DNA from: Verrucomicrobiota bacterium
GTDB lineage: Bacteria > Verrucomicrobiota > Verrucomicrobiia > Opitutales > Cerasicoccaceae
DNA: 64,000 bases
Reading direction: 5' to 3'
NCBI GenBank assembly: GCA_039818205.1
Contig: JBCBUK010000005.1
Coordinates: forward strand, 224,001 to 288,000
Within the stretch, counting starts at the first letter, position 1, and the number at the start of each line of letters is the position of its first letter. This document shows positions 31,144 through 58,944 of this stretch, one piece after another. A program made the position numbers and the translations under genes. The notes under the pieces were generated by a model. The model saw only the letters and a list, made by a program, of their open reading frames with translations. It made no database searches and was not told the origin of the DNA.

Positions 31144-31632
31144 CTACTGAGTAAGCTCCTCTTTGACGCCACCGCAACGTAGCATCATGGAACCATAATA
31201 GGGGTTGGCAACTGTCTCATCGGCTTGTATCCAACTCCCACCTTTTCCACCAAAAGCCATTGGGCAATGAACCAGATAAAGACTTTCACCATCAGGAAGC
31301 GCTTTGCTTTTGACCATCGCAATCATGCCTTCTGACAGAGGCAAAAAGGCAGCTCGCGCCGCCTTAATATCGGTCGATTCGGCAATCGTTGTCGCCGAGG
31401 CTTTCATTTGCGCGATCGATGCACTGCCAACCGGAGCACCATTGGCCAGCTGGACGAATGCCTTGGCACCTTTCTGAGCCTTTCCTAGGTCATCCTCAGC
31501 CAAACCCGACTGCATCTGCAAATAGGGTTGAACAAGAGCTGCCGCAAACTCGGCATTGCCGGACTCTGCGTGAAGGCCAAGGGCCGATGAGAATAAGAAT
31601 ATAAAAGTGAAGAGAGCGATGCGCATAATCAT
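31144..31632 (-). CDS. DUF3347-type periplasmic heavy-metal-binding protein
   Basis: Signal peptide, YLQMQSGLAEDD and HCPMAFGGKGGSWIQ...NPYYGSMMLRCG. Last gene of the Cus-type operon. Confidence 0.85.
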   Translation of the reverse strand: MIMRIALFTFIFLFSSALGLHAESGNAEFAAALVQPYLQMQSGLAEDDLGKAQKGAKAFVQLANGAPVGSASIAQMKASATTIAESTDIKAARAAFLPLSEGMIAMVKSKALPDGESLYLVHCPMAFGGKGGSWIQADETVANPYYGSMMLRCGGVKEELTQ

Positions 31633-34600
31633 GTCGAACCTTGGTGATGTTTAAAACGTAACATTATCTCTGCCAATCCGCAATAGAGTACTGGCACGAC
31701 GAAAATCGATATCGTAGCTAGCACCATGCCACCGAACGATGGTATTGCCATCGGAACCATGATGTCTGAGCCGCGCCCAACCGACGTCAACACCGGGAGT
31801 AAGGCCAAGATCGTAGTCGCGCTGGTCATAATGGCTGGGCGAACGCGTCGCGCACCCGCCTCAATGGTTGCCTGACGAATCGCCTCGATCGAATCTGGCT
31901 TCCGGTTCTTGAAGGTCTGCTGTAAGTAGGTGCAGACGATCACCCCGTCGTCGGTAGCGATACCAAACAACGCCAGGAAGCCCACCCAAACAGCAACGCT
32001 CAGGTTAATGGTCCCCATTTGAAATAGTGCCCGCAAATTATGTCCAAACAGATCGAAGTCCAAGAACCACGGTTGGCCATACAACCAGATAAGGATGAAG
32101 CCACCGGACCAGGCGAACGCGATACCGGTGAATACCATAAAAGTCTCGGGGATCCGTTTGAACTGTAGATACAACATCAGCCAGATTATGACCAAGGCAA
32201 TGGGTAGCATCATGGCGAGCTTCTTGGCCGCTCGCACCTGGTTCTCATAATTGCCCGTGAAGACGTAGCTAACACCGGCAGGAATCTCGAAATCTCCCGA
32301 CGCCTTTTTCGCATCGAGGAAACGCTGCGCTTGCTCGACGACTTCCACTTCAGAAAACCCGGGACGCTTATCAAAGATAACGTATCCAACCAGAAAGGTG
32401 TCTTCACTTTTGATTACTTGCGGTCCACGCACATAGTTAATTGAAGCAAGTTCACGTAGGGGCACTTGAGTTCCGTCAGGCCCGGCAACTAAGATTTCTT
32501 TGATTGCTTCAATGGTGTCCCGCAGTTCACGCAAATATCGAACCCGAACCGAGTACCGCTCACGCCCTTCAACCGTTTGAGTGATCGGCCTACCGCCAAC
32601 GGCCACCTCGATCACATCCTGTACCATCTGAATTTTGACGCCATAGCGAGCGATCGCATCGCGATCGATTTCGATCTCGAGATAAGGCTTCCCCACAATG
32701 CGATCGGCGAGCACTGCCTCGGCCTTTACCGACGGCACCTCCTTCAAGAAACCTTCGATCTCCAGGGCAACCTTCTCAATCGTTTCGAGATCAGGGCCGT
32801 AGACTTTCAATCCCATCGGTGCCCGCATTCCACTTTGAAGCATTACGAGCCGAGCCGCGATCGGTTGCAACTTGGGGGCCGAAGTCGTACCTGGAATCGT
32901 GGCCGCGGTTACGATCTCATCCCAAATATCATCCGGACTGTTGATCTCATCACGCCATTGGCGAAACGGTCGCCCACGGTCATCCGGAACTAGCTCGCCA
33001 GAGTCATCGCGGACAAACTCATTGCGATCCGCATCGTAGCGAAATGTGAGCACTCTTCCATTCTCGTCCGTCTTAAATTCTGACTTATAACTAATGATCG
33101 TCTCGATCATCGAAATCGGCGCTGGATCAAGCGGACTGTCCACGCGGCCCAACTTACCCACTGCAAGTTCAACTTCAGGAATCGCGTTGATGGCCATATC
33201 CTGCTTGCGCAACACGTCCATGACCTCGCCAATCGATGCATGCGGCATCGTCGTTGGCATCAACAGGAAAGACCCTTCGTCCAGATCCGGCATAAACTCT
33301 TTGCCCAACCCTGGCACCTGGTGCGCCATAAATACAAAGGGACTCGATTTCTTGATTGGCTCGGGCAACCAGCCGAAGACTTTGCCCCAACCTAGCCAAA
33401 TCGAAAAACCAAAAACGACGACAAGCGCGCTAACCCCCAGGAACACGGTTTTGTATCGCAGGATTGCCCCAAGTATCGCCGTGTAGAAGTGTAGAAAAAG
33501 ATGAAAGAAACTGAGCAATCCACCAACTGCCAGGAGCACAAATAGAACATTGTGAAAGCGCTCGTCTGGTCCAAGCGGCTGCCAATCCGCCGCCAATAGA
33601 ATTGAAACGTAGATCGCGACTAGAAAATTGAAGGCTATGAGAAGAGCACGCTCAATCCTACCAGGAATTTTCTCTCGGAACCAATGGAACGCGGCTGCTC
33701 CAACTAGCAGGAGCCCAAGAGCCCATGGAAACCAGGCCAAGAACGCTGGCCCAAGGATACCGACCGCAGCCACGATCGCCCACAAGCTACGCTTCGCCCA
33801 ACCCGATCGGTAGCAGCCCGCGATAAACCAGTGGGCCAACGGTGGAATGATCGTCAGCGCGACCACAATTGAGCCAATCAAGGCGAAGGTCTTTGTGTAA
33901 GCCAAGGGTCGGAAAAGCTTCCCTTCGGCTGCCTCCATCGAAAAGACCGGCAAGAAACTAATCACCGTCGTGAGTACGGCGGTCAACACGGCACCCGCAA
34001 CTTCCGAACAAGCACGGTAAACCACATTCAGACGGTTCTCGTCCGGGGAAGCACTTTCCAGATGTCTCAGGATATTCTCAATCAACACGACGCCCATGTC
34101 GACGATGGTGCCGATAGCGATGGCGATACCAGACAACGCAACCACATTGGCATCAACGCCGAATAGGCTCATACCAATGAAAGCAAACAGTACGGCCAAC
34201 GGAAGTACCCCTGAAATCAACGAGGCGCTACGCAAGTGCAGCACCATCACCACAACAACGATAATGGTTACCAAGATTTGTTGGCGCACGGCGTCCTCCA
34301 GGGTCCCCAGGGTCTCGTAGATCAAGCCCGTTCGATCATAGAAAGGAACAATTGCCACTTGGCTAACCGTCCCATCAGCCAGCGTTTTTTTAGGAAGCCC
34401 GGGAGAAATCTCATCGATCTTCTCCTTTACGCGTTTGATGACGGACAAGGGATTCACGCCATAGCGGGTAACCACAACGCCACCGACGGCTTCAGCACCT
34501 GCCTTATCTAATGCTCCACGGCGGAGCGCCGGCCCATAGCCAATCGTCGCGACCTGCTCCAAAGTAATTGGAACATTGTTCCGCTGTGTAATAACCGTTT

Positions 34601-35411
34601 TTCGCAGGTCATCAAGATCCTCAATAAAGCCAAGACCACGAATGACGTACTCGACACGATTGATCTCAATGGTACGGGCCCCGACATCAAGGTTGCTCCC
34701 GCGAACGGCATCAAAAACCTCGTGCAAAGGAATGTCGTAAACCCGGAGTGCATCCGGGTCCACATCCACTTGATACTCTTTGACGAAGCCACCCACGGAC
34801 GCCACCTCGGCAACGCCGTCAACTCCCTGCAAAGCATAGCGCACATACCAATCCTGAACACTTCGCAACTCCTCTAAATCCCAGCCACCAGTTGGCTCTC
34901 CATCGGCATCCATTCCTTCCAGTGTATACCAGAACACCTGGCCCAGGGCGGTGGCATCGGGGCCGAGCTGAGGCGAAACACCTTGAGGCAGTGTTCCAGC
35001 CGGCAAACTATTGAGCTTCTCCAGAATCCGACTACGCGTCCAATAGAACTCAACGTCTTCCTTAAATATGATGTAGATCGAAGAGAACCCGAACATCGAG
35101 TAGCTGCGGATAGTCTTAACCTCCGGCAACCCAAGGAGTGCGGTTGTTAGCGGGTAAGTAATCTGATCTTCAATGTCCTGCGGCGACCGCCCCATCCATT
35201 CGGTAAAAACAATCTGCTGATTCTCACCAATATCGGGAATCGCATCGACCGGGATAGGGTCCCGCTGCAAATAGCCCACCTCCCAGTCAAACGGTGCCAC
35301 CGCAACTCCCCAAAGAATCACCCCCAAGGCAAAAATCAGCACGACCAGCTTGTTCTGAAGACAAAACAAGAGGACCCAATCGACCGGACCTTTGGGCTTA
35401 TCAATTGGCAT
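31629..35411 (-). CDS. cusA: CusA/CzcA-family heavy-metal (Cu/Ag) RND permease
   Basis: DAIPDIGENQQIVFTEWMGRSPQ, LGPDATALGQV, MLQSGMRAPMG, GIATDDG and RVRPAIMTSATT. The ATG at 35411 overlaps the end of cusB. Confidence 0.92.
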   Translation of the reverse strand: MPIDKPKGPVDWVLLFCLQNKLVVLIFALGVILWGVAVAPFDWEVGYLQRDPIPVDAIPDIGENQQIVFTEWMGRSPQDIEDQITYPLTTALLGLPEVKTIRSYSMFGFSSIYIIFKEDVEFYWTRSRILEKLNSLPAGTLPQGVSPQLGPDATALGQVFWYTLEGMDADGEPTGGWDLEELRSVQDWYVRYALQGVDGVAEVASVGGFVKEYQVDVDPDALRVYDIPLHEVFDAVRGSNLDVGARTIEINRVEYVIRGLGFIEDLDDLRKTVITQRNNVPITLEQVATIGYGPALRRGALDKAGAEAVGGVVVTRYGVNPLSVIKRVKEKIDEISPGLPKKTLADGTVSQVAIVPFYDRTGLIYETLGTLEDAVRQQILVTIIVVVVMVLHLRSASLISGVLPLAVLFAFIGMSLFGVDANVVALSGIAIAIGTIVDMGVVLIENILRHLESASPDENRLNVVYRACSEVAGAVLTAVLTTVISFLPVFSMEAAEGKLFRPLAYTKTFALIGSIVVALTIIPPLAHWFIAGCYRSGWAKRSLWAIVAAVGILGPAFLAWFPWALGLLLVGAAAFHWFREKIPGRIERALLIAFNFLVAIYVSILLAADWQPLGPDERFHNVLFVLLAVGGLLSFFHLFLHFYTAILGAILRYKTVFLGVSALVVVFGFSIWLGWGKVFGWLPEPIKKSSPFVFMAHQVPGLGKEFMPDLDEGSFLLMPTTMPHASIGEVMDVLRKQDMAINAIPEVELAVGKLGRVDSPLDPAPISMIETIISYKSEFKTDENGRVLTFRYDADRNEFVRDDSGELVPDDRGRPFRQWRDEINSPDDIWDEIVTAATIPGTTSAPKLQPIAARLVMLQSGMRAPMGLKVYGPDLETIEKVALEIEGFLKEVPSVKAEAVLADRIVGKPYLEIEIDRDAIARYGVKIQMVQDVIEVAVGGRPITQTVEGRERYSVRVRYLRELRDTIEAIKEILVAGPDGTQVPLRELASINYVRGPQVIKSEDTFLVGYVIFDKRPGFSEVEVVEQAQRFLDAKKASGDFEIPAGVSYVFTGNYENQVRAAKKLAMMLPIALVIIWLMLYLQFKRIPETFMVFTGIAFAWSGGFILIWLYGQPWFLDFDLFGHNLRALFQMGTINLSVAVWVGFLALFGIATDDGVIVCTYLQQTFKNRKPDSIEAIRQATIEAGARRVRPAIMTSATTILALLPVLTSVGRGSDIMVPMAIPSFGGMVLATISIFVVPVLYCGLAEIMLRFKHHQGST

Positions 35412-37284
35412 CTTTTGCGTCACCACCAATCGTTTCTTTGACCTCGCCGCACTTCAACATCATCGCCCCGAAGTAGGGATTCTTGAGTGGCTCAGACGCC
35501 TGCAACCAATCAGCCCCGGTATCGCCATAAACCATTGGGCAGTGCATAATGAGTAGTTCACCAGACGATGCGGTAGGATCAGCTTTTATTGCGTTGATCA
35601 TGGCTGCTGAAAGCTGATCAAAGCCCGGCTTGCGGATTGCCTCCAAGGAGTCGGCTGCCATCATCTCGCGAATCAGCTCAGGAAGCGGACCTAAATGTCC
35701 TGTCGTTACGGCCATCGATATCAAAGCCTTCTTCGCTCCGTTCAAATCATCATTCGCGAGCATCGCCTGAAGCTTCAAATAGTCCGGGAGAAGCTTCTTT
35801 GCCATCGTTCCGGGTATGGTCAGCTGCGGTTCTCTGTCCCCCATATCCATGGGCATGTCCGCATGATCATGACCGCGTGGCGATCCACCACCTTCCGGAT
35901 TCATCATGCTGGGTTTGGCTTGAATCTGCAGCGCGCTATCGATCTTGAACGCACCGTTACTCACCACAAATTCACCGGCCTCAAGCCCCTCCATAACCAC
36001 AAACTGATCGCCAGCACGGGGTCCCAAGGTGATCTCACGCCCTTCATAGGTCGGATTCTCAGCGGTGAGATCCTGCACGTAAACCACCGAACGTTTACCC
36101 GTACGCAATACCGATGAAGCAGGAACCACCAAGGGCGGCTCGTCCGAAATTTCCTGCACGTATCCCAGCTCTTCCGCGGGGACGAGCGCCATTCCGCAAA
36201 CATCACAGTCGCCTGGTCCATCTTTGATAATTTCAGGATGCATCGGGCTGATCCACTTACCTGCCAATTCCGGGGCGACGACTTGACCGCCATCGGCCAT
36301 TTTTGCGGACACGATTCCCCGGGCAAACATGCCAGGCTTCAACCGGCCATCTTCATTCGGAACATTGACGCGCACCTGAGTCGTTCGCGTCTGCCGATTG
36401 ACCTCCGGATTAATAAACGCTATCCGCCCTTCAAAAGCTTCGCCTGGAAAAGCCTGAACCGTAAAGCTCACATTCTGCCCGTAGCGCAGCCAGGTCAGGT
36501 CCGATTCATAGGCATCCAGATACAGCCAGAGCACACTTAAATCCACGATCTTGAAAAGCGTCTCACCCGTTTGAATGTAGTCCCCTTCCTTGACCTTCTT
36601 ATAAACCACAACCCCGCCGATCGGCGCCCGCAATACAAACTCACTCGTTGCCTCGCCACTCTCAACGATGGCATCGATCTGGTCGGGTAATAGATCCCAA
36701 AGGCGCAATTTCTCCTTCGCCGCTTGAGTGATGGAACTCGCGGGGTCCCGCCGATAGGCCGTTAGCAATTCGCGCTGGGCCGTTAGAAGATCTGGGCTGT
36801 AAATTTTGGCTAGGTGCTCCCCCTTTTTCACGCGAACTCCAGTGAAGTTTACGAACAGCTGATCAATGCGAGCCGGGAAACGCGCCGTTAGCGCCTTCTC
36901 TCGGGTTTCATCGTATTCGAGCTCCCCGACCAGGCGAACCGCGACTTCGGGAAAACGACGAATGACCTCCGTGGTCTCGATTTCTGCAAGGGCCCGCGAA
37001 CTTTCGCTCATGCTCATCGCTCGCGGGTTATCACTCACATGATCGTCTTGTGTCAGGGGAATGAGATCCATACCGCAGATGGGGCAATCACCCGGCTCCG
37101 TCTGACGGATCTGCGGATGCATTGAACAGGTCCAAATCGTTTCATCAGCAAAACTATCAACACTCTCGGCGGCCACCGATCCATCGGCATCGCTAGCATT
37201 CGATCCCGCCGGCATTAGGTAACGGCCCGCCATCAAGCCAAGGAGGACAGCAACTGCAGCGATGATGATTGCTTTCTTATTCAT
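35401..37284 (-). CDS. cusB: CusB-type periplasmic adaptor with heavy-metal-binding domains and a C-terminal DUF3347-like domain
   Basis: WTCSMHPQIRQTEPGDCPICGMDL, ISPMHPEI...CDVCGMAL, LKPGMFA and HCPMV...NPYFGAMMLKCG. The ATG at 37284 is preferred. Confidence 0.9.
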   Translation of the reverse strand: MNKKAIIIAAVAVLLGLMAGRYLMPAGSNASDADGSVAAESVDSFADETIWTCSMHPQIRQTEPGDCPICGMDLIPLTQDDHVSDNPRAMSMSESSRALAEIETTEVIRRFPEVAVRLVGELEYDETREKALTARFPARIDQLFVNFTGVRVKKGEHLAKIYSPDLLTAQRELLTAYRRDPASSITQAAKEKLRLWDLLPDQIDAIVESGEATSEFVLRAPIGGVVVYKKVKEGDYIQTGETLFKIVDLSVLWLYLDAYESDLTWLRYGQNVSFTVQAFPGEAFEGRIAFINPEVNRQTRTTQVRVNVPNEDGRLKPGMFARGIVSAKMADGGQVVAPELAGKWISPMHPEIIKDGPGDCDVCGMALVPAEELGYVQEISDEPPLVVPASSVLRTGKRSVVYVQDLTAENPTYEGREITLGPRAGDQFVVMEGLEAGEFVVSNGAFKIDSALQIQAKPSMMNPEGGGSPRGHDHADMPMDMGDREPQLTIPGTMAKKLLPDYLKLQAMLANDDLNGAKKALISMAVTTGHLGPLPELIREMMAADSLEAIRKPGFDQLSAAMINAIKADPTASSGELLIMHCPMVYGDTGADWLQASEPLKNPYFGAMMLKCGEVKETIGGDAKDAN

Positions 37285-38599
37285 GGTCTTGTGTGGCGTG
37301 AAAGGTTCCCAGAATCGGTTGGTTAGCAAGCGTCTGGATAATGACGCGCTGTTGCCAGGCATCGGTGGCGGCTCGCCAATAAAGCAGCTGCAGTTCCAAA
37401 AGGGAGCGTTCGCTATCGATCACCTCAAGAATTCCTGTGCGTCCATTCTCATAGCTGTAGCGGCTATTCTCAGCAGCCTGTTCGGCGAGCCCCAGCAACT
37501 CATCACCGTACAAGGCAAGTCGACGATTAGCATCATTCAATCGCGCGACCGACGCACTTAGCTCAGCCCGCAAGCGATTGGAGCGATTGTCATATTCATT
37601 TTCATTCGCCCGTTGACTGGCCAATGCTTCTGCTCGGGCCGCATCGTATTTCTTAAACCAAATCGGAATCGTGAGCGCAACGGTGAAGCCCCATGGATCT
37701 TCACCTGCATCGGGCGTGTTGGGGCTCACCTCTGGTTCGCCCGTTTGAATGTAGTTAAACCCGAGGGTGATATCCGGAAAACTTTCCAACCGGGCGATCT
37801 CGCGACGCGCTTCAGCACTTGCTACTTGTCGCTCTAACATCAGCAGCTCTGGATTGTTGGTTTCAATCGCGACTATTAGCGATGGCCCATCTACCTGGAT
37901 GACTTCGGGACGATCCCAATCTGGCCACGGAAGCGTTGATTGAGCCGCCGTTGCCAACAGCTCATTGAGTTTCGCCGACTGGGCGATTCGCTTCTGCTTA
38001 AGTGATTCCAATTGGTCTCCAATCTTCCCAACCTCAACCTTGAGACGAAGCAACGCATTCAGGTCTCCTCCTGCTTTGACCTTTTCTTCCACGACGGGTT
38101 CCAACTGCTGAAGCAGGTCCAAATTTTCTTCGGTTAACTCAATCGCATGCCCGGTGAACCCATACTCATAGAAATTCAAGGCAACTGAACGAGCCACCAT
38201 GAGTTGCTGGCTTTGAAACGCATACCAGAGTGCCTCCGCTTCGGCCGAGGCAGCATTCTCCCGGCTTCCAAGTTTGCCAAACCAAGGAATGGTTTGGCTG
38301 AGCATAAACACATTCTCTTGTGGTCCGGTTCGAGTCTGCACGGACTCAACAAAATGGGTGATCTGAAATCGTGGCTCAGGCAAGGCCGACGCCTGCGGTA
38401 TCCGTTGCATCGCAGCTTCGTACCGCGCCTCAAATGCCTTAAGTTGAGGATTCGCGGCTTGAGCTTGCTCTAGGTAGCTTTGCAGATCCGTTGGGCCAGC
38501 GTCACTGGATTGAGCATGGGAGGCACAACTCAGCCCAAGGATAAGCGTGAGCGCCAGCGAACACTTGAGTCTTTTCTGAGCGTAACTGCGAAGAACCAT
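37277..38599 (-). CDS. TolC-family outer-membrane channel of the Cus-type system
   Basis: Signal peptide, AQAANPQLKA, LSQTIPWFGKL, FPDITLG and YENGRTGILEVIDSER. Overlaps the cusB start. Confidence 0.9.
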   Translation of the reverse strand: MVLRSYAQKRLKCSLALTLILGLSCASHAQSSDAGPTDLQSYLEQAQAANPQLKAFEARYEAAMQRIPQASALPEPRFQITHFVESVQTRTGPQENVFMLSQTIPWFGKLGSRENAASAEAEALWYAFQSQQLMVARSVALNFYEYGFTGHAIELTEENLDLLQQLEPVVEEKVKAGGDLNALLRLKVEVGKIGDQLESLKQKRIAQSAKLNELLATAAQSTLPWPDWDRPEVIQVDGPSLIVAIETNNPELLMLERQVASAEARREIARLESFPDITLGFNYIQTGEPEVSPNTPDAGEDPWGFTVALTIPIWFKKYDAARAEALASQRANENEYDNRSNRLRAELSASVARLNDANRRLALYGDELLGLAEQAAENSRYSYENGRTGILEVIDSERSLLELQLLYWRAATDAWQQRVIIQTLANQPILGTFHATQDHE

Positions 38600-38694: not shown

Positions 38695-41600
38695 TTACTC
38701 AGAGGTGTCGGCGGGTTTTGCTTTTTCGCTGACGTAATCCAGAACCGCTGCACCAAACGTAAAACCACCGCCGAATGCAACCAGAGCAACACGGGCATTG
38801 CCGGGCAGATCTTCCCAGTTTTTCGAAAGGCACAATGGAATACTGCTGGATGAGGTGTTGCCGAAATTCCGGATATTCTCCCAGACCCGCTCCGGGCGAC
38901 CACTCAGGCGCTTCGCCAAGGCACGACTGATACGTTGATTTGCCTGGTGAGGCACAATCACATCTAAGTCGTCCATCTCAAGTCCACTGGCAGCACACGC
39001 TTGTGTCATCGCATTGGTCATATGGCGGACCGCATCATAAAAGACGCGTTTGCCGCGCATCGCGGTCGAATCAGGGCTATCGGTCAAGGGAACATTCAAG
39101 CTCTCGCCGGACTCCCCAATACCCGAAATAAGCGGCTTGTGCAGACGCAACTCATCACTGAGCTCGGGCTCACCGGAATCGGCCGAACGCGCACTGATCA
39201 GAGTCGCGGTAGCCGCATCGCCAAATAAAAACGCCGTATCGTAATCTTCAAGATCAAGCGTCCGGGAAAGCACTTCAGTAGTCACCAACAACACATTCCC
39301 AGAGCGACCTTCCAAAAAGTCATAAGCGCATTGAAGACCGTATAGATAGCCCGAACATCCCGCGGAAATATCATAACCCGGGCAGCACTGCTCCGGAGCC
39401 AATGCATGTAAGACTCGCATGGCCAGCGAAGGCGTCCCGCGGTCAGGAGTCGTTGTCGAACAAATTACCAGATCGATATCCTCCATGGCCACTGGCGTTT
39501 TCTCGAGCAGTTGCTCGACGGCTTCTACAGCCAAGCTGAGCGGCGTTTGTTCTGGGGAAGCCCAATAGCGGCTCTCGATACCCGTGCGACGGACAATATC
39601 GTCGCTGGTTTTTTCTGGGAAGCGCTTGAGCAACTCTTCGTTGCTAACTTCGACGCTACCATGGGCAATGCCGATAGCGCCCAAACGAACGATTGTGTTC
39701 TCATCCGAACGAGGGCCACTTGCCAAGAGCGGTGCGGCATCGTCTGTCGAAATAATATAAGGCTTCTTCTTTTGATTCTTCGTCGAAGAACGCTCAGTCG
39801 TATTAGCCTCAGCGCATCGAATGCGCATGATTGGGTCGCCCACGCTGATTGAAACGCCTTCGTCGACCGCCAGGGCCTCAACAACACCCTCAAAAGGAGA
39901 GACCATTTCGGCGGCAGCTTTATCTGCCTCTATAATCGCGATGTCCTGGTCTACGCTGACCGTGTCGCCTTCCTTGACCAACCATTCAACAACGGTTACC
40001 GAGTCGTCAGAAGCTCCGACGCCCATCGCGGAAATCGTCTCTATATTTGAGCTTTCCACATCATCGCTTGCCCAGCCCAGCTGTAAATCCATCAGCTCAG
40101 CTGCGGCCTCAATAATGTCGTCGACCGATGGCAAAATCTCCAGCTGGTTGGCCAGGTTGAACGGCACAAGCGCTTCGGGCCGGGTTACCCGTCGAACGCG
40201 GGCAGGCACCGATTCACCTTCAACGACACACGCACAAATTTCGGCGCCCACACCACAAAATCCATTGTCCTCGTGAACGACAACCAAGCGCTTCGTCTTG
40301 CGAACGGAACTGCGAATCGCGTCTTCATCCCAAGGAGTGATCGAGCGCAAGTCAATGACCTCGGCGGACACCCCGAGCGCCTCTAATTGTTGAGCCGCCT
40401 CTTCGCACAGAGGGACCGTATTGGCCCAACCAACCAAGGTGACATCGTCGCCGCTACGGCATTGGTGGGCTTTTCCAATTGGCACCCAATAGTTCGCGAC
40501 GTCTCCGCTCGAAGCCCGCAGCTTGGCGTTAATCAAATTCTTGGGATACAAGATGACCGTCGGACGATTCGAAGCCAGGGCTGCGTTAACCATTCCCGCA
40601 GCATCGCGCGCGGTGGAGGGCATCACGATATCAACCCCGGGTGAATGCGCCAAAACCGACTCTAAGGTCTGCGTGTGAAAGGGCCCAGTACCCCCGCGAT
40701 AACCACCGCAGGAAACCATGATCACCACTGGGCAATTCCATTGCCCGGCTGATCGCCAATACATCGAGGCCAGTTCGTTGTGATAAAGGTTCTGAATCAG
40801 CGGAAGAAAATCAGCAAACTGAATAAACCCGACTGGCTTGCCGCCGGCCAGAGCTTGCCCAATGGTGAGCCCCATGATGCTGGCCTCTGCCAGTGGCGCG
40901 TTGCGAACCCGGTCCGGGAACGCTTCCGATAGGCCTTGGGTCACCCCAAATACATCGCCTTTGGGGTCTTCGATGTCCTCGCCCAGAAGCGTAACCGCCT
41001 CGTCCTTGCTCATCGCCTGATGCAAGGCTTCGCGCATGGCTGCACGCATCGTCACCCCAATACCGTTGGTATCGATTCGACGCCCCTCCTTGGGCTCGGT
41101 CTGGTTTACGTAGTCGGCACTGAGTGGTGCCTTGACCTCCAAGGATAAAACTGGATCAGCAGATTGTCGGGCCTCGTCGGCCGCGGACTTCACCGCCACC
41201 CGGGCACTCTCCTCGATTTCGAGCAACTGATCGTTGTCCACACCGAGATCCAAAAGCTGCTTGCGAAATTCGATCAGTGGATCACGAAACTTAGCATTCT
41301 CGGCCAGAGTATCCGCATTGCGGTAGGCCTGCTGATCATCGGCGTTCGAATGGCTGCCCAAGCGCTCGACCCGCATCACCGCAATCGCTGGACCACGAGT
41401 CGATCGAATCTTGCTGCAGAGGTTGCCAAACTGTTCACGTGAATCGATGACATCGACGCCATCCCAATAATGAATTGGCACACCGAGGAAGCTTTCCGCC
41501 TGCCCATCCGGGAGGGAGAAAAAGGTTTGCCCTCCCGTCGTAGTCGAAAGCGCATAACCATTGTCCTGGATCAAGAACAACACAGGCAAATTCGCTCGAA

Positions 41601-42144
41601 CCGCCTCACCGACGGCCTCATAAAAATCCCCCTGCTGCACGCCGCCATCGCCAATTGCACAATAGACCAGCGGAGCACCAGGATCATCTTTGATGCGAGA
41701 AGCGACGCCCACGGCAGGCAACAGATTGTTGCCCACCGAAACTGGCATACTCATGACATTCAGCGCCCGGTCCGAGTGCATCACATTCATGTGCCGCCCT
41801 GCCGAACAAGAAGCCTCGTTCGCAAACAGAGAATCAAAGAATGATCGAGGCTCGACCCCGCGAGCGAGCAAAAGAGCTCGATCGCGGTAGTGACAACCCA
41901 GCCAATCGTCCGGAGTCAGAAACTCCGCGAGGGTTGCCGTTGCCTCGTGCCCCGCACTTGCAATGTGGAAGTGCCCCTCACCTCGAGCGATGATCTTGCG
42001 TTCCTCGGACTCGATTTCGCGTGAGCGGACAAGACAGCCATACAAATCCAGGTACCGTTCCAGTAGATCAGATCGGCACGAATCCGGGGTGGATTCCGCT
42101 AAACGGGTCATGGGTTCAACCGGTCGGTCCTTGAAGACATCCAT
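38695..42144 (-). CDS. Fusion protein: 2-oxoacid dehydrogenase E1alpha + E1beta + lipoyl domain + FabH (KAS III)
   Basis: ThDP motif GDGGVQQG...QDNGYA. E1beta motifs LLGEDI...GVTQGL, NAPLAEASIMG and IQFADF. Lipoyl motif EADKA (K742). KAS III motifs DISAGCSG (C930), PHQAN (H1066), GNTSSSS (N1096) and AFGGGFTFG. Confidence 0.9.
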   Translation of the reverse strand: MDVFKDRPVEPMTRLAESTPDSCRSDLLERYLDLYGCLVRSREIESEERKIIARGEGHFHIASAGHEATATLAEFLTPDDWLGCHYRDRALLLARGVEPRSFFDSLFANEASCSAGRHMNVMHSDRALNVMSMPVSVGNNLLPAVGVASRIKDDPGAPLVYCAIGDGGVQQGDFYEAVGEAVRANLPVLFLIQDNGYALSTTTGGQTFFSLPDGQAESFLGVPIHYWDGVDVIDSREQFGNLCSKIRSTRGPAIAVMRVERLGSHSNADDQQAYRNADTLAENAKFRDPLIEFRKQLLDLGVDNDQLLEIEESARVAVKSAADEARQSADPVLSLEVKAPLSADYVNQTEPKEGRRIDTNGIGVTMRAAMREALHQAMSKDEAVTLLGEDIEDPKGDVFGVTQGLSEAFPDRVRNAPLAEASIMGLTIGQALAGGKPVGFIQFADFLPLIQNLYHNELASMYWRSAGQWNCPVVIMVSCGGYRGGTGPFHTQTLESVLAHSPGVDIVMPSTARDAAGMVNAALASNRPTVILYPKNLINAKLRASSGDVANYWVPIGKAHQCRSGDDVTLVGWANTVPLCEEAAQQLEALGVSAEVIDLRSITPWDEDAIRSSVRKTKRLVVVHEDNGFCGVGAEICACVVEGESVPARVRRVTRPEALVPFNLANQLEILPSVDDIIEAAAELMDLQLGWASDDVESSNIETISAMGVGASDDSVTVVEWLVKEGDTVSVDQDIAIIEADKAAAEMVSPFEGVVEALAVDEGVSISVGDPIMRIRCAEANTTERSSTKNQKKKPYIISTDDAAPLLASGPRSDENTIVRLGAIGIAHGSVEVSNEELLKRFPEKTSDDIVRRTGIESRYWASPEQTPLSLAVEAVEQLLEKTPVAMEDIDLVICSTTTPDRGTPSLAMRVLHALAPEQCCPGYDISAGCSGYLYGLQCAYDFLEGRSGNVLLVTTEVLSRTLDLEDYDTAFLFGDAATATLISARSADSGEPELSDELRLHKPLISGIGESGESLNVPLTDSPDSTAMRGKRVFYDAVRHMTNAMTQACAASGLEMDDLDVIVPHQANQRISRALAKRLSGRPERVWENIRNFGNTSSSSIPLCLSKNWEDLPGNARVALVAFGGGFTFGAAVLDYVSEKAKPADTSE

Positions 42145-44005: not shown

Positions 44006-45994
44006 ATGAAACAAACACTCCTTTGCAGCCTCGGTCTATGCCTTGCGGCAACTACATTGTTGGCGGAAAATGCGCAAAACGACCGAAAAATGAACGTCAT
44101 CTTGATCGTCGCCGACGATATAAGCGCCCGCGAATTCCCCTTTTATGGTTCTTCGAAATGGTCTGGCGAACGCCGAGCCCAGACGCCGGTGATGGATCGC
44201 TTGGCAGAAGAAGGATGCTTCGTCGAAACCTTTTGGGCTGCAACCATTTGCAAACCGAGCCGAGTCTCGATGATGAACGGCACCTATGCCCACCAAAACA
44301 AATACTGGGACAATCGTCACATCGGGGTCGACTGCCGGACCGTCTACTCCGCCTACGAAAGCGCTCCGATCACCCTCGGTAACATGAGCCGGGACGCCGG
44401 ATATGCGAACATTTGGGTCTCTAAGACCCATATCACGGCCGGTGGCGACATCCTCAGCATGGGTTTCAACGAATGCGTACTCAACCCTGCGGAGCCGGCG
44501 CGGCATATGGGCTGGACTCCATTCGGCACTCCAGAACCAAACCCCTATCCAATTTTCCGCACCCCCAATCCTGACGACTGGGACCACGAATCCTTCTTCT
44601 TCTGGCCGGAGATACAGCTGATCAACCACCCGGACCACCCCAATGAGACCTTCACATGGGAGAAAACCGAAATCAACGACTACGCTCCAGATGTTGAAAT
44701 GGAACACATCTATGCGTTCATGGATCGATCCAAAGCCGCGGGAAAACCCTTTTTCATCCTCCACACGCCGCACCTGGGCCACCTTGCCAAAGACCCGACT
44801 CACCCCGACTTTCCAACCGTCTGGCCCGGCACTCCAGAAATTGAGTGGACGGGTGACGGCTACGTCCGCAAAGACCCCAAGATTACCAAGCTGGCAGACG
44901 GAACCTACGAAAAAGAAAACATCACGCCCGACGGGTTAAGCTACCACATCGACTATCTGGATTTTCAAATTTGGGAGATGCTGCAGAAACTCGAGGAGAT
45001 CGGTGAGCTCGACAACACCGTGATACTCTTCAGCGCGGACAACGGCACCCAATGGAATGCATGGGGCAAAGGCAATGTTCGCAGCCAGCAAGGCCAACAT
45101 GTTCCTCTCCTCATCTACGCCCCCGGCGTTGAAGGATTTGTCCAAGGACGTCAAAATATCAGCGCCGACATAACGGACTTACTGCCGACGCTTGCCGAGA
45201 TCATGGATTTCCAGTTCCCTGAAGGCTACGACAAGCTCGACGGTCAAAGCCTCTGGCCTTACCTCACGGGTGAGGCGGATCATCACCGCGACTACATTTA
45301 CTCAATGCGGATTGAAACCCAGATGATTCGCAATGACAAAGTCATGCGCGACGGGCATGGAACATGGTATGATGTCAACCAGCGCCCTGGAGACTTCGAG
45401 AGCTTCACCAAGCTCGACGATCTACCGGAAGGAGAATACAAAGACACCTTGCTCGCCGAAAAGGCTAAGCTCGAACCGATGCTCGCGCAGTACGACCTTT
45501 ACGACATTGAATCCGAAGCACCGAAACCGCCGGCTGATGCCGATAAAGATGGCATTGCGGACTGGTTTGAAGAGCGGCACGGCGACCTTAAGCCCAACGC
45601 AGATCCCGATAAGGATGGTGTCAGTAACTACCTTGAATACATTCATGCCGGTGATCCCCACGACCCAAGCTTACCGACTCAGGAACAATTGCCCCACGCG
45701 ATCGAGCTATCCGACGCACAAGGCAACTACCTGGGCCTGCAGTTCGTGCGGCGGGAAGAGCTGGGGCCCGACTATTGGTTTTTAATCGAGGGGTCAGCCG
45801 ATGGCGAGGAATGGACGACTGATGGCGTCATCCAACAGCACACGCTTCGGTCCAATGGGGACGGAACTGAGCGGGTCATTGCACGCATCGCCGCCGACAA
45901 AGACAAAGCAAACCTGTCCGAGATGCGCTTAACGGTTCAGAAGCCTCGCGAACGGAAGGCACGCAAATACACCTACTTGCTCAAAAAAGACTAG
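44006..45994 (+). CDS. Secreted family S1 sulfatase-like hydrolase with a PVC-type C-terminal domain
   Basis: Signal peptide, NVILIVADD, CKPSR and FSADNG. C-terminal DADKDGIADW...DPDKDGVSNYLEY...IEGSADGEEW module. Confidence 0.88.
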   Translation: MKQTLLCSLGLCLAATTLLAENAQNDRKMNVILIVADDISAREFPFYGSSKWSGERRAQTPVMDRLAEEGCFVETFWAATICKPSRVSMMNGTYAHQNKYWDNRHIGVDCRTVYSAYESAPITLGNMSRDAGYANIWVSKTHITAGGDILSMGFNECVLNPAEPARHMGWTPFGTPEPNPYPIFRTPNPDDWDHESFFFWPEIQLINHPDHPNETFTWEKTEINDYAPDVEMEHIYAFMDRSKAAGKPFFILHTPHLGHLAKDPTHPDFPTVWPGTPEIEWTGDGYVRKDPKITKLADGTYEKENITPDGLSYHIDYLDFQIWEMLQKLEEIGELDNTVILFSADNGTQWNAWGKGNVRSQQGQHVPLLIYAPGVEGFVQGRQNISADITDLLPTLAEIMDFQFPEGYDKLDGQSLWPYLTGEADHHRDYIYSMRIETQMIRNDKVMRDGHGTWYDVNQRPGDFESFTKLDDLPEGEYKDTLLAEKAKLEPMLAQYDLYDIESEAPKPPADADKDGIADWFEERHGDLKPNADPDKDGVSNYLEYIHAGDPHDPSLPTQEQLPHAIELSDAQGNYLGLQFVRREELGPDYWFLIEGSADGEEWTTDGVIQQHTLRSNGDGTERVIARIAADKDKANLSEMRLTVQKPRERKARKYTYLLKKD

Positions 45995-47080: not shown

Positions 47081-48082
47081 ATGAAAATGCATATACTATC
47101 AAATGTATCTCGCCTATTGGCAATCGCTGCCTTGGGTTTTGCCTCCACAACGCTCCACGCAAAAGAACCCCTGAAAATCGCCTATAGCGATTGGCCAGGT
47201 TGGGTTGCCTGGGAAATTGGCATCAAGAAAGGCTGGTTCGAAGAAGCTGGCGTCGATGTCGACTTCCTTTGGTTTGACTACGTTGCATCGATGGATGCTT
47301 ACGTGGCTGGCAAGGTCGACGCGGTATCAATGACCAATGGTGATGCGTTGGTCACTGGCGCCACCGGGAAGCCATCGGTCGGCATTATTCTGAATGACTT
47401 CTCCAACGGCAATGACATGATTGTCGGCGGCCCGGGAGTTGATTCGATCAAGGACTTGAAGGGCAAGAAGGTCGGCGTTGAAGAAGGCTTTGTTTGCCAC
47501 CTGCTTCTGCTCAAAGGGTTATCGGATAACGGTATGTCCGCTGACGATGTGACCATCGTCAACACACCAACCAACGAAACGCCCCAGGTGCTTGCTTCGG
47601 GCGCTGTCGCAGCAATTGGCGCATGGCAGCCGAACTCAGGTGAAGCCTTGAAAGCGACGCCAGGCTCTTCACGCATTTATTCATCGGCTGATAGCCCAGG
47701 TATCATCTATGACTTCCTTTTCGTTTCTCCGGAGTCGTTGGAGACCCGTCGCGATGACTGGATGAAAGTGGTTGGCGTCTGGTATCGCATCGTCGACTAC
47801 TTAAAGGACGAAGACAATATCGACGAAGCGCTCGAGATACTCTCATCACGCGTCAACTTGAAGCCTTCAGAGTATGAGCCGCTGTTTATTGGCACCCACA
47901 TCCTCTCGCTCGATGAAGCGCTTGAGCGCTGGAAAAAAGGCGACGGCCTCGGCAGCGTCTACGGTTCTACTGACTTTGTTGATGACTTCAACGTGAAGTT
48001 TGAGGTCTATGAGGAGCCACTCAATACATCTAAGTATTTAGATCCGAGTCTGACAAAAGAATATGCGAAGTCCGCGAAGTAG
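47081..48082 (+). CDS. NitT/TauT (SsuA/THI5-like) ABC substrate-binding protein; predicted guanidine/amine-type ligand
   Basis: Signal peptide, [33 protein letters not shown] and [13 protein letters not shown]. The ligand is inferred from gene context only. Confidence 0.85.
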
Positions 48083-48109
48083 GGAATCGTGGTATCGTTA
48101 AAATAGGTA

Positions 48110-48147
48110 GCTTTGGCACCAAGCCGGATAAGGCTTGGTGCCAAGGC
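48110..48147 (+). other. Intercistronic 16-bp hairpin (mRNA stabiliser or attenuator) after the SBP gene
   Basis: GCTTTGGCACCAAGCC(ggataa)GGCTTGGTGCCAAGGC, with no U tract on the plus strand. Confidence 0.65.
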
Positions 48148-48173
48148 AAAACCACTGCTGCACTACAACTACT

Positions 48174-49571
48174 ATGTCCAAATTCGATCCATGGTTGGCG
48201 ATACGCAAACCACTGTCGCCACAGCGACAAGCACTACTCACGGTCGTTTCATTCCTACTGCCGATCTTTGTTTGGTGCATTGTCAGCTACATACCGTGGC
48301 TCTGGCATCCGGACATGGTTGTTACAGTCTCCGCCGATCGCCATGATGTCACCACCGTCTACTCGGTTGGCGATCGATTACCACGTCACAAAGAAAGCGA
48401 AGACGACTTTGCCTTTGTCGATTTCGTCGAAGATGTTCGCGAGCGTAACGAAGAAATTCAAGCTGCCCGCGATTCTGGAGAGCCGATGGAAAGCTCCCGT
48501 CGCGCGAACAAGAAAGTTCTGCGTCACCTGGCACCGGTTGGCATTGCCGAAGGCTGGCTAACACGGGACCAGGCCACTGATGATACGGCAATCTACACGC
48601 TTTGGGGAGAGATTGCGCGGGGTGAAAAACAACCGTCCAAAGTCCAACTCTCCCAAGAGAATTTGGCAGTCGTCCGGGACAACTGGAGTAAGGTCGGAGC
48701 GATCAGCGAAACCTACGATTCGAAGAAAATCCCGACGGAAATTCTCCTCAATTTAATTCCACAAGGCAAACCATCCAATCCCGTATTTGTACCCGCACCG
48801 CACGAGGTTGTTCAAACGGGCATTTATGATTGGACGCACCAACGCGACCCAGACAAGCCGGCGATGTTCGAGCGCTACGGTCACTCGTTGACCATTGTCT
48901 TTAGCGGCTTCCTGCTTTCCTGCTTATTTGGCGTCCCACTCGGGATCTTAAGCGGAACCTACGACTTTTTTGCCAAAATTGTTGAGCCCTTTACTGATTT
49001 CTTCCGCTACATGCCTGCCCCGGCATTCAGCACAATATTGGTCGCCATTTTATCGGTGTATGACGCGCCGAAAATCGGCCTGGTTTTTCTCGGCACTTAC
49101 TTCCAAATGGTGTTGGTCATTTCCAACACGACGCGAACCTTAGACCGCTCGCTTCTCGAAGCTGCCCAAACCCTGGGCGCCAAGAGCAAAGACATGATGT
49201 TCCGAGTCATCATCCCAGGCATCATGCCAAAGCTCTACAATGACCTTCGCATTTTGCTCGGCTGGGCATGGACTTGGCTCGTGATCGCAGAACTGATCGG
49301 AACCAAGTCAGGCTTGACCGAGTTCATTGAGACGCAGGGCCGTTTTCGGAATTTCGACAGTGTCTACCCAACGATCATCATCATTGGCCTAACCGGCTAC
49401 GTGACCGACCAAATTCTCGCCGCCCTGCGCCCGCTTTTCTTCCCGTGGGATCCGCAGCATTCTAGTCAGAAGCTCAATGTGATCATCCGCTTTTTCAAAT
49501 GGCTCACGAACTCGGAGTGCTACGTAAAGTCCGAGCAAGACACCAAAACACTAACCTCCAACGACCAATAG
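48174..49571 (+). CDS. NitT/TauT ABC permease with a large inserted soluble loop
   Basis: [22 protein letters not shown] motif [10 protein letters not shown] and [14 protein letters not shown]. The ATG at 48174 is preferred. Confidence 0.9.
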
Positions 49572-49581
49572 AAGGCTTCCC

Positions 49582-50478
49582 ATGATTGATGAATTGCAAT
49601 TACCGAGCTATCGGGAACAAAGCCCAGAAGTTGCCAGCCGTTTCAAGTCCATCTATGAGCGACCCGTTAAGCTGGAGGTCAAAGGGTTAGGCCGAACCTT
49701 CAACTCGAACAAGGGTACTGTTCGTGCGCTCCACGATATCAGCTTCAACGTTCACCGCCGCGAATTCATCTCGGTCATTGGGCCATCTGGCTGCGGTAAG
49801 TCGACCTTGATCCGTATTTTGGCAGGCCTAGATTTCCCGACATCAGGCGAGGCACTGCTCGACGGTAAAACAATCTTTGGCCCTGGTCGTGACCGCGGAA
49901 TGGTTTTTCAAGGGTATACGCTTTTTCCTTGGTTAACCGTCAAGAAGAACGTGATGTTCGGTCTCGAAGTGTCTGGCAGGACAGGATCATCTGTAGAAGC
50001 GGAAGCCCGCTCCTGGATTGAGATCGTCGGCTTGGCCGGGTTTGAAAATGCCTATCCAAGCCAACTTTCAGGGGGCATGAAACAACGCGTGGCGATCGCC
50101 CGATCCCTTGCGAATAATCCAAGCATGCTGTTCATGGACGAACCGTTTGGCGCCTTGGATGCCCAAACGCGGTGCCAGATGCAATCTTATCTCCTCCAGA
50201 TTTGGCGCAACGTTGATGTCACGATCATGTTTGTGACGCACGATCTGGATGAGGCGATTTACCTTTCCGACCGCATCCTCGTGCTCAAAGCCAAGCCCGG
50301 GGAGATCAACGAGTTCATCGAAGTTCCAGTTCCCCGCCCACGCTCGGTTGACCAACTCCTTTCGCCAACCTTCCTCGCAACCAAAAAGCGTCTGGAAGAA
50401 CTGATTCACCCAGAGGGAACGGAGATCAAGGAGCTCCCGGTAAAACGGTTCGTATCGGCTGACGAGGAAATTGAATGA
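49582..50478 (+). CDS. NitT/TauT ABC ATP-binding protein
   Basis: [27 protein letters not shown] and FVTHD. Confidence 0.95.
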
Positions 50479-51245
50479 CCGGCGCCAAGGCATCAAGTTC
50501 ATGGGAACACCTGACCTGGCCGGAGATTGGCCAGCGGCTGGAAAGCGGCCAAGACGCTGCGATCCTTCCCGTGGGTGCAACCGAACAACATGGCCCCCAC
50601 TTGGGCGTCGGCATGGACACGGCCTTGGCTGAACGACTGGCGCTCGCCGTATCGGCGTCGACTGGCGTTCCCTGTCTGCCAGCGCTCCCCTATGGTTGTT
50701 CAATAGGGCATTCTCACCGCTGGCCAGGCACCTTGGCGCTCAACCCGAAAACGCTCATTGATGTCATCGCCGACATTGGCCGTTGGTTCTACAAGAGTGG
50801 AGGCCGTCGCCTCTTTCTTGTCAACGGGCACGTAGGCAACCGTGCTCCCTTGCGCTGTGCGCTCGAAGTACTCCGAGCGGAATGTGAAGACTTCAAGATC
50901 GCGATTTTTACCACCGGCGACATCAGCGACCGCGTCGCGGCAGCGTTTTCTCAAGACGCAGCAGACTGGCATGCAAATGCGGCCGAAACGGCCCTTATGA
51001 TGCATCTTAGCCCAGAATCCGTTCGATTCGATCGGGTCCAGGACGCCGATGATCCGGATCGCACCAACGATTGCGTTTTTGCCCACCCGGTAAACCGAAC
51101 AAGCCTTAACGGTGTGACCGGCAAGCCATCGACGGCGACTTCCGCAATGGGCGAACAGCTGTTTGCGATCATGGTCGATGACCTCAGTGAACACATCATG
51201 AAGGGCCTGCAGGAGGCGTCGCCCCTCGAATTCCCCTACAACTAA
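50475..51245 (+). CDS. Creatininase-fold amidohydrolase of unknown substrate
   Basis: [13 protein letters not shown]...DT, VNGHVGN and [12 protein letters not shown] overlap with the ATPase gene. Confidence 0.88.
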
Positions 51246-51262
51246 GCCACAAGGAATTTACG

Positions 51263-52681
51263 ATGAACTTGACCGAGTATACCGCACTGCCCTTTCAGAA
51301 ATCTCAGGGAAACGCCTATGGCACACTGCCGGGTGACGAAGAAATCAACGCCGTTCGCAACACCTTGGCTGAGGCAGGAGTAAAATACGTAACCGGTGCC
51401 TATGTCGACATTCATGGCGTCCCCAAAGGTAAAGTCGTTCCGCTGTCGCATTTTGAGAGCTTTGCCAAAGGATCGGAGCTCTACACGGGCTACGCGCTCG
51501 ATGGATTGGGCCAGCTTCCAAATGACGATGAAATCTGCTCGATTCCAGATCTGGGCAACATCGTTCAGCTTCCTTGGCAGCCGGAGATGGCCTGGATGCC
51601 GGCCGACAATGGATTCAAGGGGGAGCCCTACGAAGTTAACACTCGTGTCATTCTCCAGAAGGTTCTCAAGAAAGCAGAGTCGATGGGCTTCGGTTTCAAC
51701 CTTGGTATCGAATGCGAGTTATTTGTCCTGCGCAAGCTTGCCGATGGCACTATTGAAATTCCAAATCCTGAGGACAAGCAGGTAAAGAGCTGCTACGACC
51801 TCAACGGGTTCATGGCCCGCTTTGACTGGCTGGACAAAATGGCAACCACCATCGATGCCCTCGGGTGGGACCTCTATTCCTTCGACCACGAGGACGCGAA
51901 TTCTCAATTCGAATTCGATTTCAAGTATGCTGATGCCCTGACCATGTGTGATCGGTTCATCTTCTTTCGCTTGATGGCTAAACAGTATGCCCAAGAAGAA
52001 GGCTTAGTTGCTTCATTTATGCCCAAACCCTTTGCCGACAAAACCGGCAGCGGTGCCCACTTCAATATGTCGCTGTTTGACCTGGAGAGCGGGTCCAATC
52101 TTTTCGCCGATAGCAACGACACTCGCGAACTCGGACTCAGTAAACTCGGCTATCAATTCTGCGCGGGAATCCTCAAGCACGGACCAGCGCTGTGTGCCGC
52201 CTTTGCGCCAACCGTGAACAGCTACAAGCGCCTCGTCCGCCGCGGCCTAATGGCCTACTACTCATGGGCGCCGGTATTCAATTCCTACGGCAGCAACAAC
52301 CGAACCAACTCCTTACGCATACCGATGGACGGAGGCCGGGTCGAGTCGCGCAACGCCGACGCATCCTGCAACCCCTATTTGGCGGCCACGCTAGCCTTGG
52401 CAGCTGGACTTCAAGGGATCGAAGAAGACCTCGATCCCGGAGAGCCCCAGGAGGACAACCTCTATGCGCTTAGCAAGGAGCAGCTGCATTCGCGCGGGAT
52501 CGATGAATTGCCTCGGAGTTTGCTGGAGGCAGTCGAAGCTTTTGCCGAAGACCCGTTCGTCGCCGAGGTCCTTGGAGATGGCCTGCGAAATGAATTTATT
52601 ACCTACAAATCTGAGGAATGGCGCCAGTTTCATCAACGGGTTCACGCATGGGAAATTGATGAATATTTGCTCAAATTTTGA
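51263..52681 (+). CDS. glnT: GlnT/GmaS-clade glutamine-synthetase-like gamma-glutamyl ligase
   Basis: [30 protein letters not shown] (GmaS-like rather than HHEVA), FMPKPF, NSYKRL, NRTNSLR and [15 protein letters not shown]. Confidence 0.85.
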
Positions 52682-52688
52682 TCCCGCG

Positions 52689-52716
52689 GTATTAACAATT
52701 TGCCAAAAATTAATAT
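52689..52716. promoter_or_regulatory. NikR-type operator 2 (GTATTA-N16-TAATAT)
   Basis: Same half-sites and 16-nt spacer as operator 1, with a similar TTT..CCAAAAA spacer. It ends 36 nt upstream of the NikR-like gene. Confidence 0.75.
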
Positions 52717-52752
52717 TGAATTGATCCCTGGAAACGCTAATCCATCAACCTT

Positions 52753-53930: not shown

Positions 53931-53933
53931 CTT

Positions 53934-54578: not shown

Positions 54579-54591
54579 AACCCCGACCCAT

Positions 54592-58934: not shown

Positions 58935-58944
58935 AATGACCGCG

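Follow-up and report, generated by a model that had tools for sequence, protein, structure and literature searches.

The window analysed here is a stretch of 64,000 nucleotides from a Verrucomicrobiota bacterium of the family Cerasicoccaceae (order Opitutales; assembly GCA_039818205.1, contig JBCBUK010000005.1, positions 224,001 to 288,000). An open reading frame (ORF) on its minus strand encodes one chain that joins the two parts of a thiamine diphosphate (ThDP)-dependent 2-oxoacid dehydrogenase (E1alpha and E1beta), a lipoyl domain and a type III 3-ketoacyl-acyl carrier protein synthase (KAS III, the FabH fold). On balance, comparisons of sequences make it probable that this fusion is a 2-oxoacid dehydrogenase on one chain whose acyltransferase (E2) core has been replaced by KAS III, and that it serves as a starter of type II fatty-acid synthesis independent of coenzyme A (CoA). 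Papers are cited by accession, for those of their passages that were available.

Domain order and conservation of the fusion

The ORF has no internal stops, and the plus-strand frame is riddled with them; an earlier note, made from the letters of this DNA alone, had rightly described it as uninterrupted, without naming a strand. Pfam places E1_dh at residues 47-329, Transket_pyr at 364-538 and Transketolase_C at 557-669, followed by Biotin_lipoyl (709-775), ACP_syn_III (924-989) and ACP_syn_III_C (1050-1136), and gives no match in the protein to the E2 core (2-oxoacid_dh, PF00198) or to E3_binding. The domain order, the lipoyl lysine and the Cys-His-Asn triad named in the earlier note are confirmed at their positions (Table 1). 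KAS residues were numbered by alignment to E. coli FabH. From E1 structures we take the listed E1beta residues to be catalytic, and R1071 is presumably a contact for the acyl carrier protein (ACP).

Table 1. Features of the fusion gene, with window coordinates
Feature	Coordinates	Strand	Remarks
Whole ORF, 1149 aa (P0001)	38695..42144	-	E1alpha-E1beta-lipoyl-KAS III; ORF, Pfam, AlphaFold2
E1alpha domain, ~residues 25-340	41125..42072	-	GDG165-167...N195 ThDP/Mg motif, F59, Y86, R87, H265
E1beta domain, ~residues 360-690	40075..41067	-	Invariant E420, QFADF 442-446, H490
Lipoyl domain, ~residues 700-782	39799..40047	-	Acidic (17 D/E versus 4 K/R)
K742	39919..39921	-	In EADKA; predicted lipoylated lysine
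Flexible linker, ~residues 783-814	39703..39798	-	Low pLDDT; without peripheral subunit-binding (E3-binding) domain
KAS III (FabH-fold) domain, ~residues 815-1140	38725..39702	-	
C930	39355..39357	-	E. coli C112; acyl-accepting cysteine
H1066, R1071, N1096	38857..38949	-	E. coli H244, R249, N274; H/N are the malonyl-decarboxylation pair
D849	39598..39600	-	At E. coli Trp32 position (CoA adenine stacking)
Y968	39241..39243	-	At E. coli Arg151 position (CoA adenine stacking)
T904	39433..39435	-	At E. coli Phe87 position; opened acyl pocket, cf. M. tuberculosis FabH

An AlphaFold2 model built on a 59-row alignment has a mean predicted local distance difference test (pLDDT) score of 88.4 and a predicted template modelling (pTM) score of 0.71, and its only low-confidence regions are the termini, residues 786-788 and residues 801-815 in the linker between the lipoyl and KAS domains. 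Parts of the model match FabH and E1beta structures in Foldseek; among the matches listed no chain spans the whole fusion (best TM-score over the query, 0.46). A predicted complex of the lipoyl domain with a KAS III dimer scored 0.00, a value that weighs neither way because the controls were unfolded.

The best 120 of 1400 matches, with the query included, all share its six Pfam families; their identity is 46-63% and their coverage 94-98%, and we refer to them as the close fusions. Those with names come from two cultured genera of harmless marine bacteria, Cerasicoccus (C. arenae, 63%) and Ruficoccus, from other Opitutales and Planctomycetes, and from a Spirochaetaceae bin. A search of representatives at 50% identity added 36 full-length fusions, here called the diverse fusions, among 138 new proteins. 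The survey of the architecture across genomes that the earlier note had proposed found it full-length in 26 of 301 genomes of the phylum, with two more at contig edges, and in 5 of 151 genomes of the order, every one in the host's family. The ESM Atlas yielded only clusters of the same architecture, and a search for shorter proteins returned mostly contig-edge fragments and no split gene.

Catalytic residues are conserved in every module. In the close fusions G165, N195, H265, E420 and H490 are invariant, K742 is always lysine, and the triad and the R249 equivalent are each retained in 120 of 120. The diverse fusions keep Cys-His-Asn in 36 of 36 and the lipoyl lysine in 35, and the 28 fusions taken from genomes all keep the triad with R249. 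An assembly artefact or a decaying chance fusion, against which the earlier note had cautioned, might be suspected because the stretch occurs in only one sequencing run, possibly its own source. That explanation has a negligible probability and is effectively ruled out by the 120 homologues, the 26 full-length copies in the phylum, the invariance of the catalytic residues, the AlphaFold2 model and the even GC content along the ORF (0.53-0.58).

KAS III in the position of the E2 core

The nearest relative of the fusion in other Opitutales is a protein of 1000-1140 residues that matches it over residues ~30-780 and occurs, judged by score, in 33 of 151 genomes. All 25 of these sister proteins that were checked with Pfam have the order E1alpha-E1beta-lipoyl-E2 core (2-oxoacid_dh), with a DHRxxNG motif, and their E1 forms the sister clade of the fusion E1 (FastTree support 0.978, with few outgroups). 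Since the sisters carry an E2 core at that point of the chain, KAS III occupies the place of the E2 core in the fusion, as had been claimed when the ORF was first described. The E2 core of the single-chain sisters (L031-L055) is itself divergent, scoring 73-108 bits versus 267-274 for canonical cores.

A second family has the order lipoyl-E3_binding-KAS III, and is in effect an E2 whose core is a KAS III. Among the matches listed, 120 of 120 have the lipoyl and KAS III domains and 110 also the peripheral subunit-binding domain (PSBD); the named ones are from Opitutaceae. Members were found in 17 of 151 genomes of the order, and all 17 have an extra E1 without a matching E2, and none has a third stand-alone E2 core. 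In the two genomes where the extra E1 was checked, it is a fused E1alpha-E1beta without a lipoyl domain, unlinked to the lipoyl-PSBD-KAS gene. One of the 17 genomes, G061 (96% complete), has no E2 core that we could find, yet an E3 (dihydrolipoamide dehydrogenase) is present. Examples of the family lie at L075:823-2466 (G014) and L077:1435-3045 (G034), the latter losing homology past its GKYG motif through a frameshift or a sequencing error.

The three forms are nearly exclusive: 5 genomes hold the fusion, 17 the lipoyl-PSBD-KAS protein and 33 the E2-core protein, and only G075 holds two, counts that were taken over related genomes and so are not independent.

The host genome (99.97% complete) has three E1 genes (pyruvate dehydrogenase, PDH; SucA; and the fusion) and only two E2 cores, PDH-type and SucB. 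It also has two above-cut-off E3, adjacent LipB and LipA (both above cut-offs), ACP, and a canonical FabH near plsX. With this set of genes and this number of E2 cores, the lipoyl arm can be lipoylated and reoxidised, and the fusion E1 has no E2 of its own. The seven other genomes of the family have two E2 cores each, with three E1 in the four that carry the fusion and two E1 in the three that do not. All 25 further fusion-bearing genomes hold canonical FabH, E3 and lipoate ligase or transferase, and 24 also hold an E2 core, so that the fusion is best regarded as an accessory source of primers; its use as the only FabH of small genomes was considered and is ruled out by these 25 canonical copies. 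In fusion-bearing G203 (97% complete) no E2 core was found.

Other loci of the host came to light in the same analysis. Two have thiolase folds: an OleA-like KAS with a haloalkane-dehalogenase-like neighbour (L013:4824-6753), and a type III polyketide synthase (PKS) with a methyltransferase and an MMPL transporter (L014:5084-9218). A stop-free frame of 16,270 codons (G000:C1:377975-426784, minus strand) adjoins genes for a membrane-fusion protein, an HExxH metalloprotease and a SecA-like protein.

The acyl donor, the substrate and the proposed reaction

Textbook initiation of fatty-acid synthesis passes through acyl-CoA, which the E2 of a dehydrogenase complex makes and FabH consumes. The KAS III domains considered here depart from FabH at the site where CoA is held. 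Trp32 and Arg151 of FabH stack the CoA adenine (PMC4606726). In the close fusions the Trp32 position is Asp in 97, Glu in 13, Lys in 9 and His in one, and the Arg151 position is Phe in 85, Tyr in 22, Leu in 8, Pro in 4 and Val in one; the pair is thus found in none of the 120, versus Trp and Arg in 20 of 20 housekeeping FabH of Opitutales. It is likewise missing from all 36 diverse fusions, versus 46 of 59 KAS III of stand-alone length that have it (8 of the 13 clamp-less ones nest within the fusion clade), and from all 28 fusions from genomes, versus all 25 housekeeping FabH taken from 25 genomes that carry a fusion. The lipoyl-PSBD-KAS III proteins (P0243-P0362) have no Trp at position 32 in any of 120; the triad and Arg249 are retained throughout. 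Because the fused KAS III lacks Trp32 and Arg151, acyl-CoA is probably skipped.

Two trees separated the KAS domains of the single-chain and the lipoyl-PSBD proteins, but we make no claim of convergent clamp loss, since the approximately unbiased test (p 0.845) does not reject that every lipoyl-tethered KAS III goes back to a single origin. Four divergent lipoyl-tethered KAS III (P0431, P0433, P0429 and P0436) have Trp32, or Tyr32 with Arg151, and are possible intermediate states.

The residue at the Phe87 position bears on the size of the primer. All 28 fusions from genomes carry Thr there, and 24 of 25 housekeeping FabH carry Phe; Phe87 limits E. coli FabH to acetyl, and its replacement is described as a known switch to larger primers (PMC3734052, PMC12625853). 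Thr87 speaks against an acetyl primer. The E1alpha domain scores 126 bits against the branched-chain E1 of Thermus thermophilus (1um9), the closest solved structure, and 78 bits against Geobacillus PDH (1w85). F59, Y86 and M119 of the fusion align with T. thermophilus F66, Y95 and M128, which presumably line the substrate pocket. A branched-chain 2-oxoacid, as the earlier note had suggested, is a likely substrate from these comparisons, but the question is not settled: the closeness of E1alpha to the branched-chain 2-oxoacid dehydrogenase (BCKDH) agrees with it, and the variable pocket residue and the family's lipids described below leave room for doubt.

We consider it somewhat likely that the fusion primes fatty acids larger than acetyl, probably branched-chain ones, by direct transfer of the acyl group from the lipoyl arm to the ketosynthase cysteine. 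E1 is known to acylate a lipoyl arm reductively. The ThDP-dependent E1, whose catalytic residues are in place, would decarboxylate a 2-oxoacid that exceeds pyruvate in size and is most likely branched-chain, and would then reductively acylate a lipoyl group on K742, presumably installed by LipB and LipA. The arm would swing to the KAS III domain, and trans-thioesterification onto C930 would be the new step. H1066 and N1096, both present, would decarboxylate malonyl-ACP, so that 3-oxoacyl-ACP is released into elongation, and the dihydrolipoamide would be reoxidised by an E3 encoded elsewhere in the genome, for which candidate genes exist. Working beside a housekeeping FabH that uses acetyl-CoA, the fusion may supply a minor or conditional class of primers. 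The core of this proposal, transfer from lipoyl to cysteine without acyl-CoA and with E3 in trans, had been put forward in the earlier note. It now has comparative support from the exchange in the E2 slot, the E2-like KAS family, the loss of the clamp and the E3, LipA and LipB genes; the transfer itself is still a prediction from sequence.

A number of observations weigh against this interpretation. The clamp counts are not independent, since the main fusion clade is a single lineage, and with one origin retained by the test cited above the loss of the clamp may be a single event. Two of the 36 diverse fusions, which are divergent, retain Trp32 and one retains Arg151; P0429 and P0436 retain Tyr/Arg; and five untethered FabH-like proteins (L081-L085) are also without Trp32. 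Thr87 is common in stand-alone KAS III (17 of 59). Orphan E1 genes occur in G020 and G148, which have no lipoyl-PSBD-KAS III, and 24 of the 25 further fusion genomes hold at least one E2 core. The fusion was not found in two of the four genomes of the genus or in three of the eight of the family. As to the substrate, the position of His131 is Phe in 80, Met in 22 and His in 18 of the close fusions versus His in 25 of 25 E2-core sisters, and because this position varies the substrate may differ from that of a classic BCKDH. The ranking of E1beta between PDH and BCKDH is ambiguous, and C14:0 and C18:1w9c are the predominant fatty acids in descriptions of Cerasicoccaceae (PMC10288369).

The E2 cores of the carrier genomes would suit a Rosetta-stone fusion, in which the E2 of PDH or of 2-oxoglutarate dehydrogenase (OGDH) makes acyl-CoA in trans and the fused FabH uses it conventionally. 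The host's two cores fit such a scheme, and so does Arg36, a pantetheine contact in FabH (PMC4606726), which is mostly retained (24 of 28 fusions). We nevertheless consider it quite unlikely, given that all 28 fusions have lost the adenine clamp, that no E2 core was found in G203 or G061, and that KAS III lies exactly in the E2 slot.

One homologue bears on the fate of the acyl group. In P0388 (1942 aa) the fusion is extended by a PKS-type ketoreductase (KR), an ACP and a further C-terminal region; a KR and an ACP fit what is expected for a 3-oxoacyl-ACP product, in this one case, and the protein may work as a small assembly line whose primer comes from a 2-oxoacid. The KR thus argues against a KAS III that does not condense and acts as a transacylase, passing the acyl group from the lipoyl arm through its cysteine to holo-ACP (a primer for FabF) or to CoA (as a functional replacement of E2). 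KAS III-fold acyltransferases, DpsC and OxaC, are known (PMC12308425), QncL-type systems end in acyl-ACP (PMC6335953), and the KAS domain falls below the TIGR00747 cut-off for FabH (225.9 versus 292.1 bits), all of which a transacylase would accommodate; the domain does exceed the cut-off of the broader NF006829 subfamily (256.9 versus 249). DpsC and OxaC, however, use Ser-His-Asp (PMC12308425), whereas Cys-His-Asn is retained in 120 of 120 close and 36 of 36 diverse fusions, and CoA as acceptor is poorly compatible with the loss of the clamp. A transacylase is accordingly improbable in our judgement.

The relay and condensation could also proceed as we propose with another substrate, such as 2-oxobutyrate, pyruvate, a ketose phosphate or a 2-oxoacid that is longer or aromatic, or lead to a specialised lipid in place of membrane iso and anteiso acids. 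We hold this unlikely, because E1alpha scores so much higher against BCKDH than against PDH, because Thr87 speaks against acetyl and because conserved tailoring genes are missing from the flanks (see below). On its side are the substrate-pocket motif, which departs from the GRQ[LM]PxH of the sisters, the patchy distribution of the fusion, the mainly straight-chain lipids of Cerasicoccaceae (PMC10288369) and, for a specialised product, the extension of P0388 into KR and ACP. The lipid data are mixed, in that Lacunisphaera (Opitutaceae) is reported to be rich in iso and anteiso acids (PMC5303756).

Direct priming from the lipoyl arm may extend beyond the host. It is somewhat likely that CoA-independent initiation of fatty acids with lipoyl-lysine as the acyl donor of a ketosynthase is widespread. 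One chain would carry it in Verrucomicrobiota, Planctomycetota, Spirochaetota and others, and elsewhere it would use an E2 with a KAS III core together with an orphan E1. If so, it would be a new chemistry between enzyme and carrier and a third fate of the lipoyl arm, and it would explain how branched lipids can be primed in genomes whose orphan E1 lacks a matching E2. Branched primers would be insulated from the acyl-CoA pool, and the chain could serve to load PKS-like assembly lines such as P0388. A single gene leading from a 2-oxoacid to a 3-oxoacyl-ACP starter would be useful to those who engineer branched-chain lipids or the starters of polyketides.

Genomic setting and comparison with known systems

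Pfam found no E2 core, E3, ACP, PKS or nonribosomal peptide synthetase (NRPS) domain in the 35 other large ORFs of the window, as the earlier note had stated for the vicinity of the gene, and the host's E2 cores, two above-cut-off E3 and above-cut-off ACP all lie on other contigs. An RhlE-type RNA helicase gene ends 4 nt upstream of the fusion, and a CusCBA-type efflux operon lies downstream. Among 80 metagenomic fusion loci (50 distinct groups) the top recurring neighbour cluster appears in just 5 of 50, and 144 flanking ORFs from these groups (of 158 candidates) have scattered functions. A lipoate ligase (L145) and a FabF-like gene (L092) beside fusion homologues are single, anecdotal cases. 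The fusion behaves like an independent metabolic gene rather than a member of a biosynthetic cluster. A promoter and terminator scan gave counts at chance level (3 versus 3.4; 9 versus 6.5), an Rfam scan of the window had zero matches, a single-protein locus search in named genomes returned only two unrelated E1 loci, and no RNA sequencing run is among the runs listed as containing the stretch.

The upstream helicase is kept in the sole congener that carries the fusion (L027:4927-6261, G089) and was not observed next to the gene in the further family members that were checked. The downstream operon (31144-38599, minus strand) encodes a CusCBA-type heavy-metal efflux system with a DUF3347 protein, and RND pumps near some metagenome homologues (L088, L117, L124, L163) are among the few recurring neighbours. 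At 47081-63988 lies a nitrogen-scavenging cluster with an ABC transporter, creatininase-like and glutamine synthetase-like genes, NikR, two DUF1989 genes, two urea-carboxylase-like genes face-to-face, a GntR regulator and an allophanate hydrolase, and with no Rfam riboswitch match. Elsewhere in the window are a 1515-residue secreted-type protein with Ig, PKD, beta-propeller and di-haem cytochrome c (MauG/RoxA-like) segments (23537-28084, plus strand), a beta-porphyranase-like multidomain protein with CBM6/35 (9920-13828, plus strand), and sulfatases at 28297-30630 and 44006-45994.

In its overall input and output the fusion resembles a BCKDH complex (alpha2beta2 E1, E2 and E3) working with FabH, the textbook route to iso and anteiso fatty acids, as summarised for Akkermansia (PMC9328018). 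Both have the E1 fold and catalytic residues, a lipoyl domain and a KAS III with Cys-His-Asn, and both need E3; the fusion differs in being one chain without an E2 core or PSBD, in having a KAS without Trp32 and Arg151, and in lying outside any bkd operon. With FabH itself (E. coli 1hn9, B. subtilis 8vd9) the KAS domain shares the fold (TM-score 0.87-0.93 over the target), C112, H244, N274, R249, M207, G209 and F213, but it is tethered to a lipoyl domain and E1, has W32 and R151 replaced and Thr for F87, scores below TIGR00747, and coexists with a canonical FabH.

Other single-chain rearrangements of these domains are known. OdhA retains an acyltransferase core and makes acyl-CoA; it is not known to carry a lipoyl domain of its own and has no ketosynthase. 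The likeness of the fusion to the actinobacterial OdhA/KGD proteins, in which an E2 core is fused to E1o (8p5v, 2yid; bioRxiv 10.1101/2020.07.24.212647), is confined to that rearrangement. From the KAS III acyltransferases DpsC and OxaC it is separated by the triad, as set out above.

Related in logic are QncN/QncL/QncM of quinocarcin and SclQ1-4 of scleric acid, in which a ThDP-loaded lipoyl arm passes an acyl group to an ACP pathway without free acyl-CoA (PMC6335953). The earlier note had taken the quinocarcin relay as a precedent for KAS III, which does not hold: as described in the available passages of that source, QncL is a lipoyl domain with an E2-type acyltransferase domain that loads the ACP QncM, and no KAS III takes part in that step (PMC6335953). 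In the Qnc and Scl systems the acyl group comes from a ketose-phosphate donor, and an E2-type acyltransferase transfers it to a dedicated ACP of an NRPS cluster (PMC6335953); the fusion would release it through a KAS III that condenses, has an E1alpha like that of BCKDH and lies in no cluster, and it is set apart from QncN/QncL by description. We found no description of an E1-lipoyl-KAS III architecture in the open-access PMC and bioRxiv literature; subscription journals and supplements were outside the scope. Quinocarcin-type clusters reportedly contain a KAS III-like gene. Set against these systems, the modules of the fusion are all known ones, and its new element would plausibly be the hand-off of the acyl group from lipoamide to the ketosynthase.

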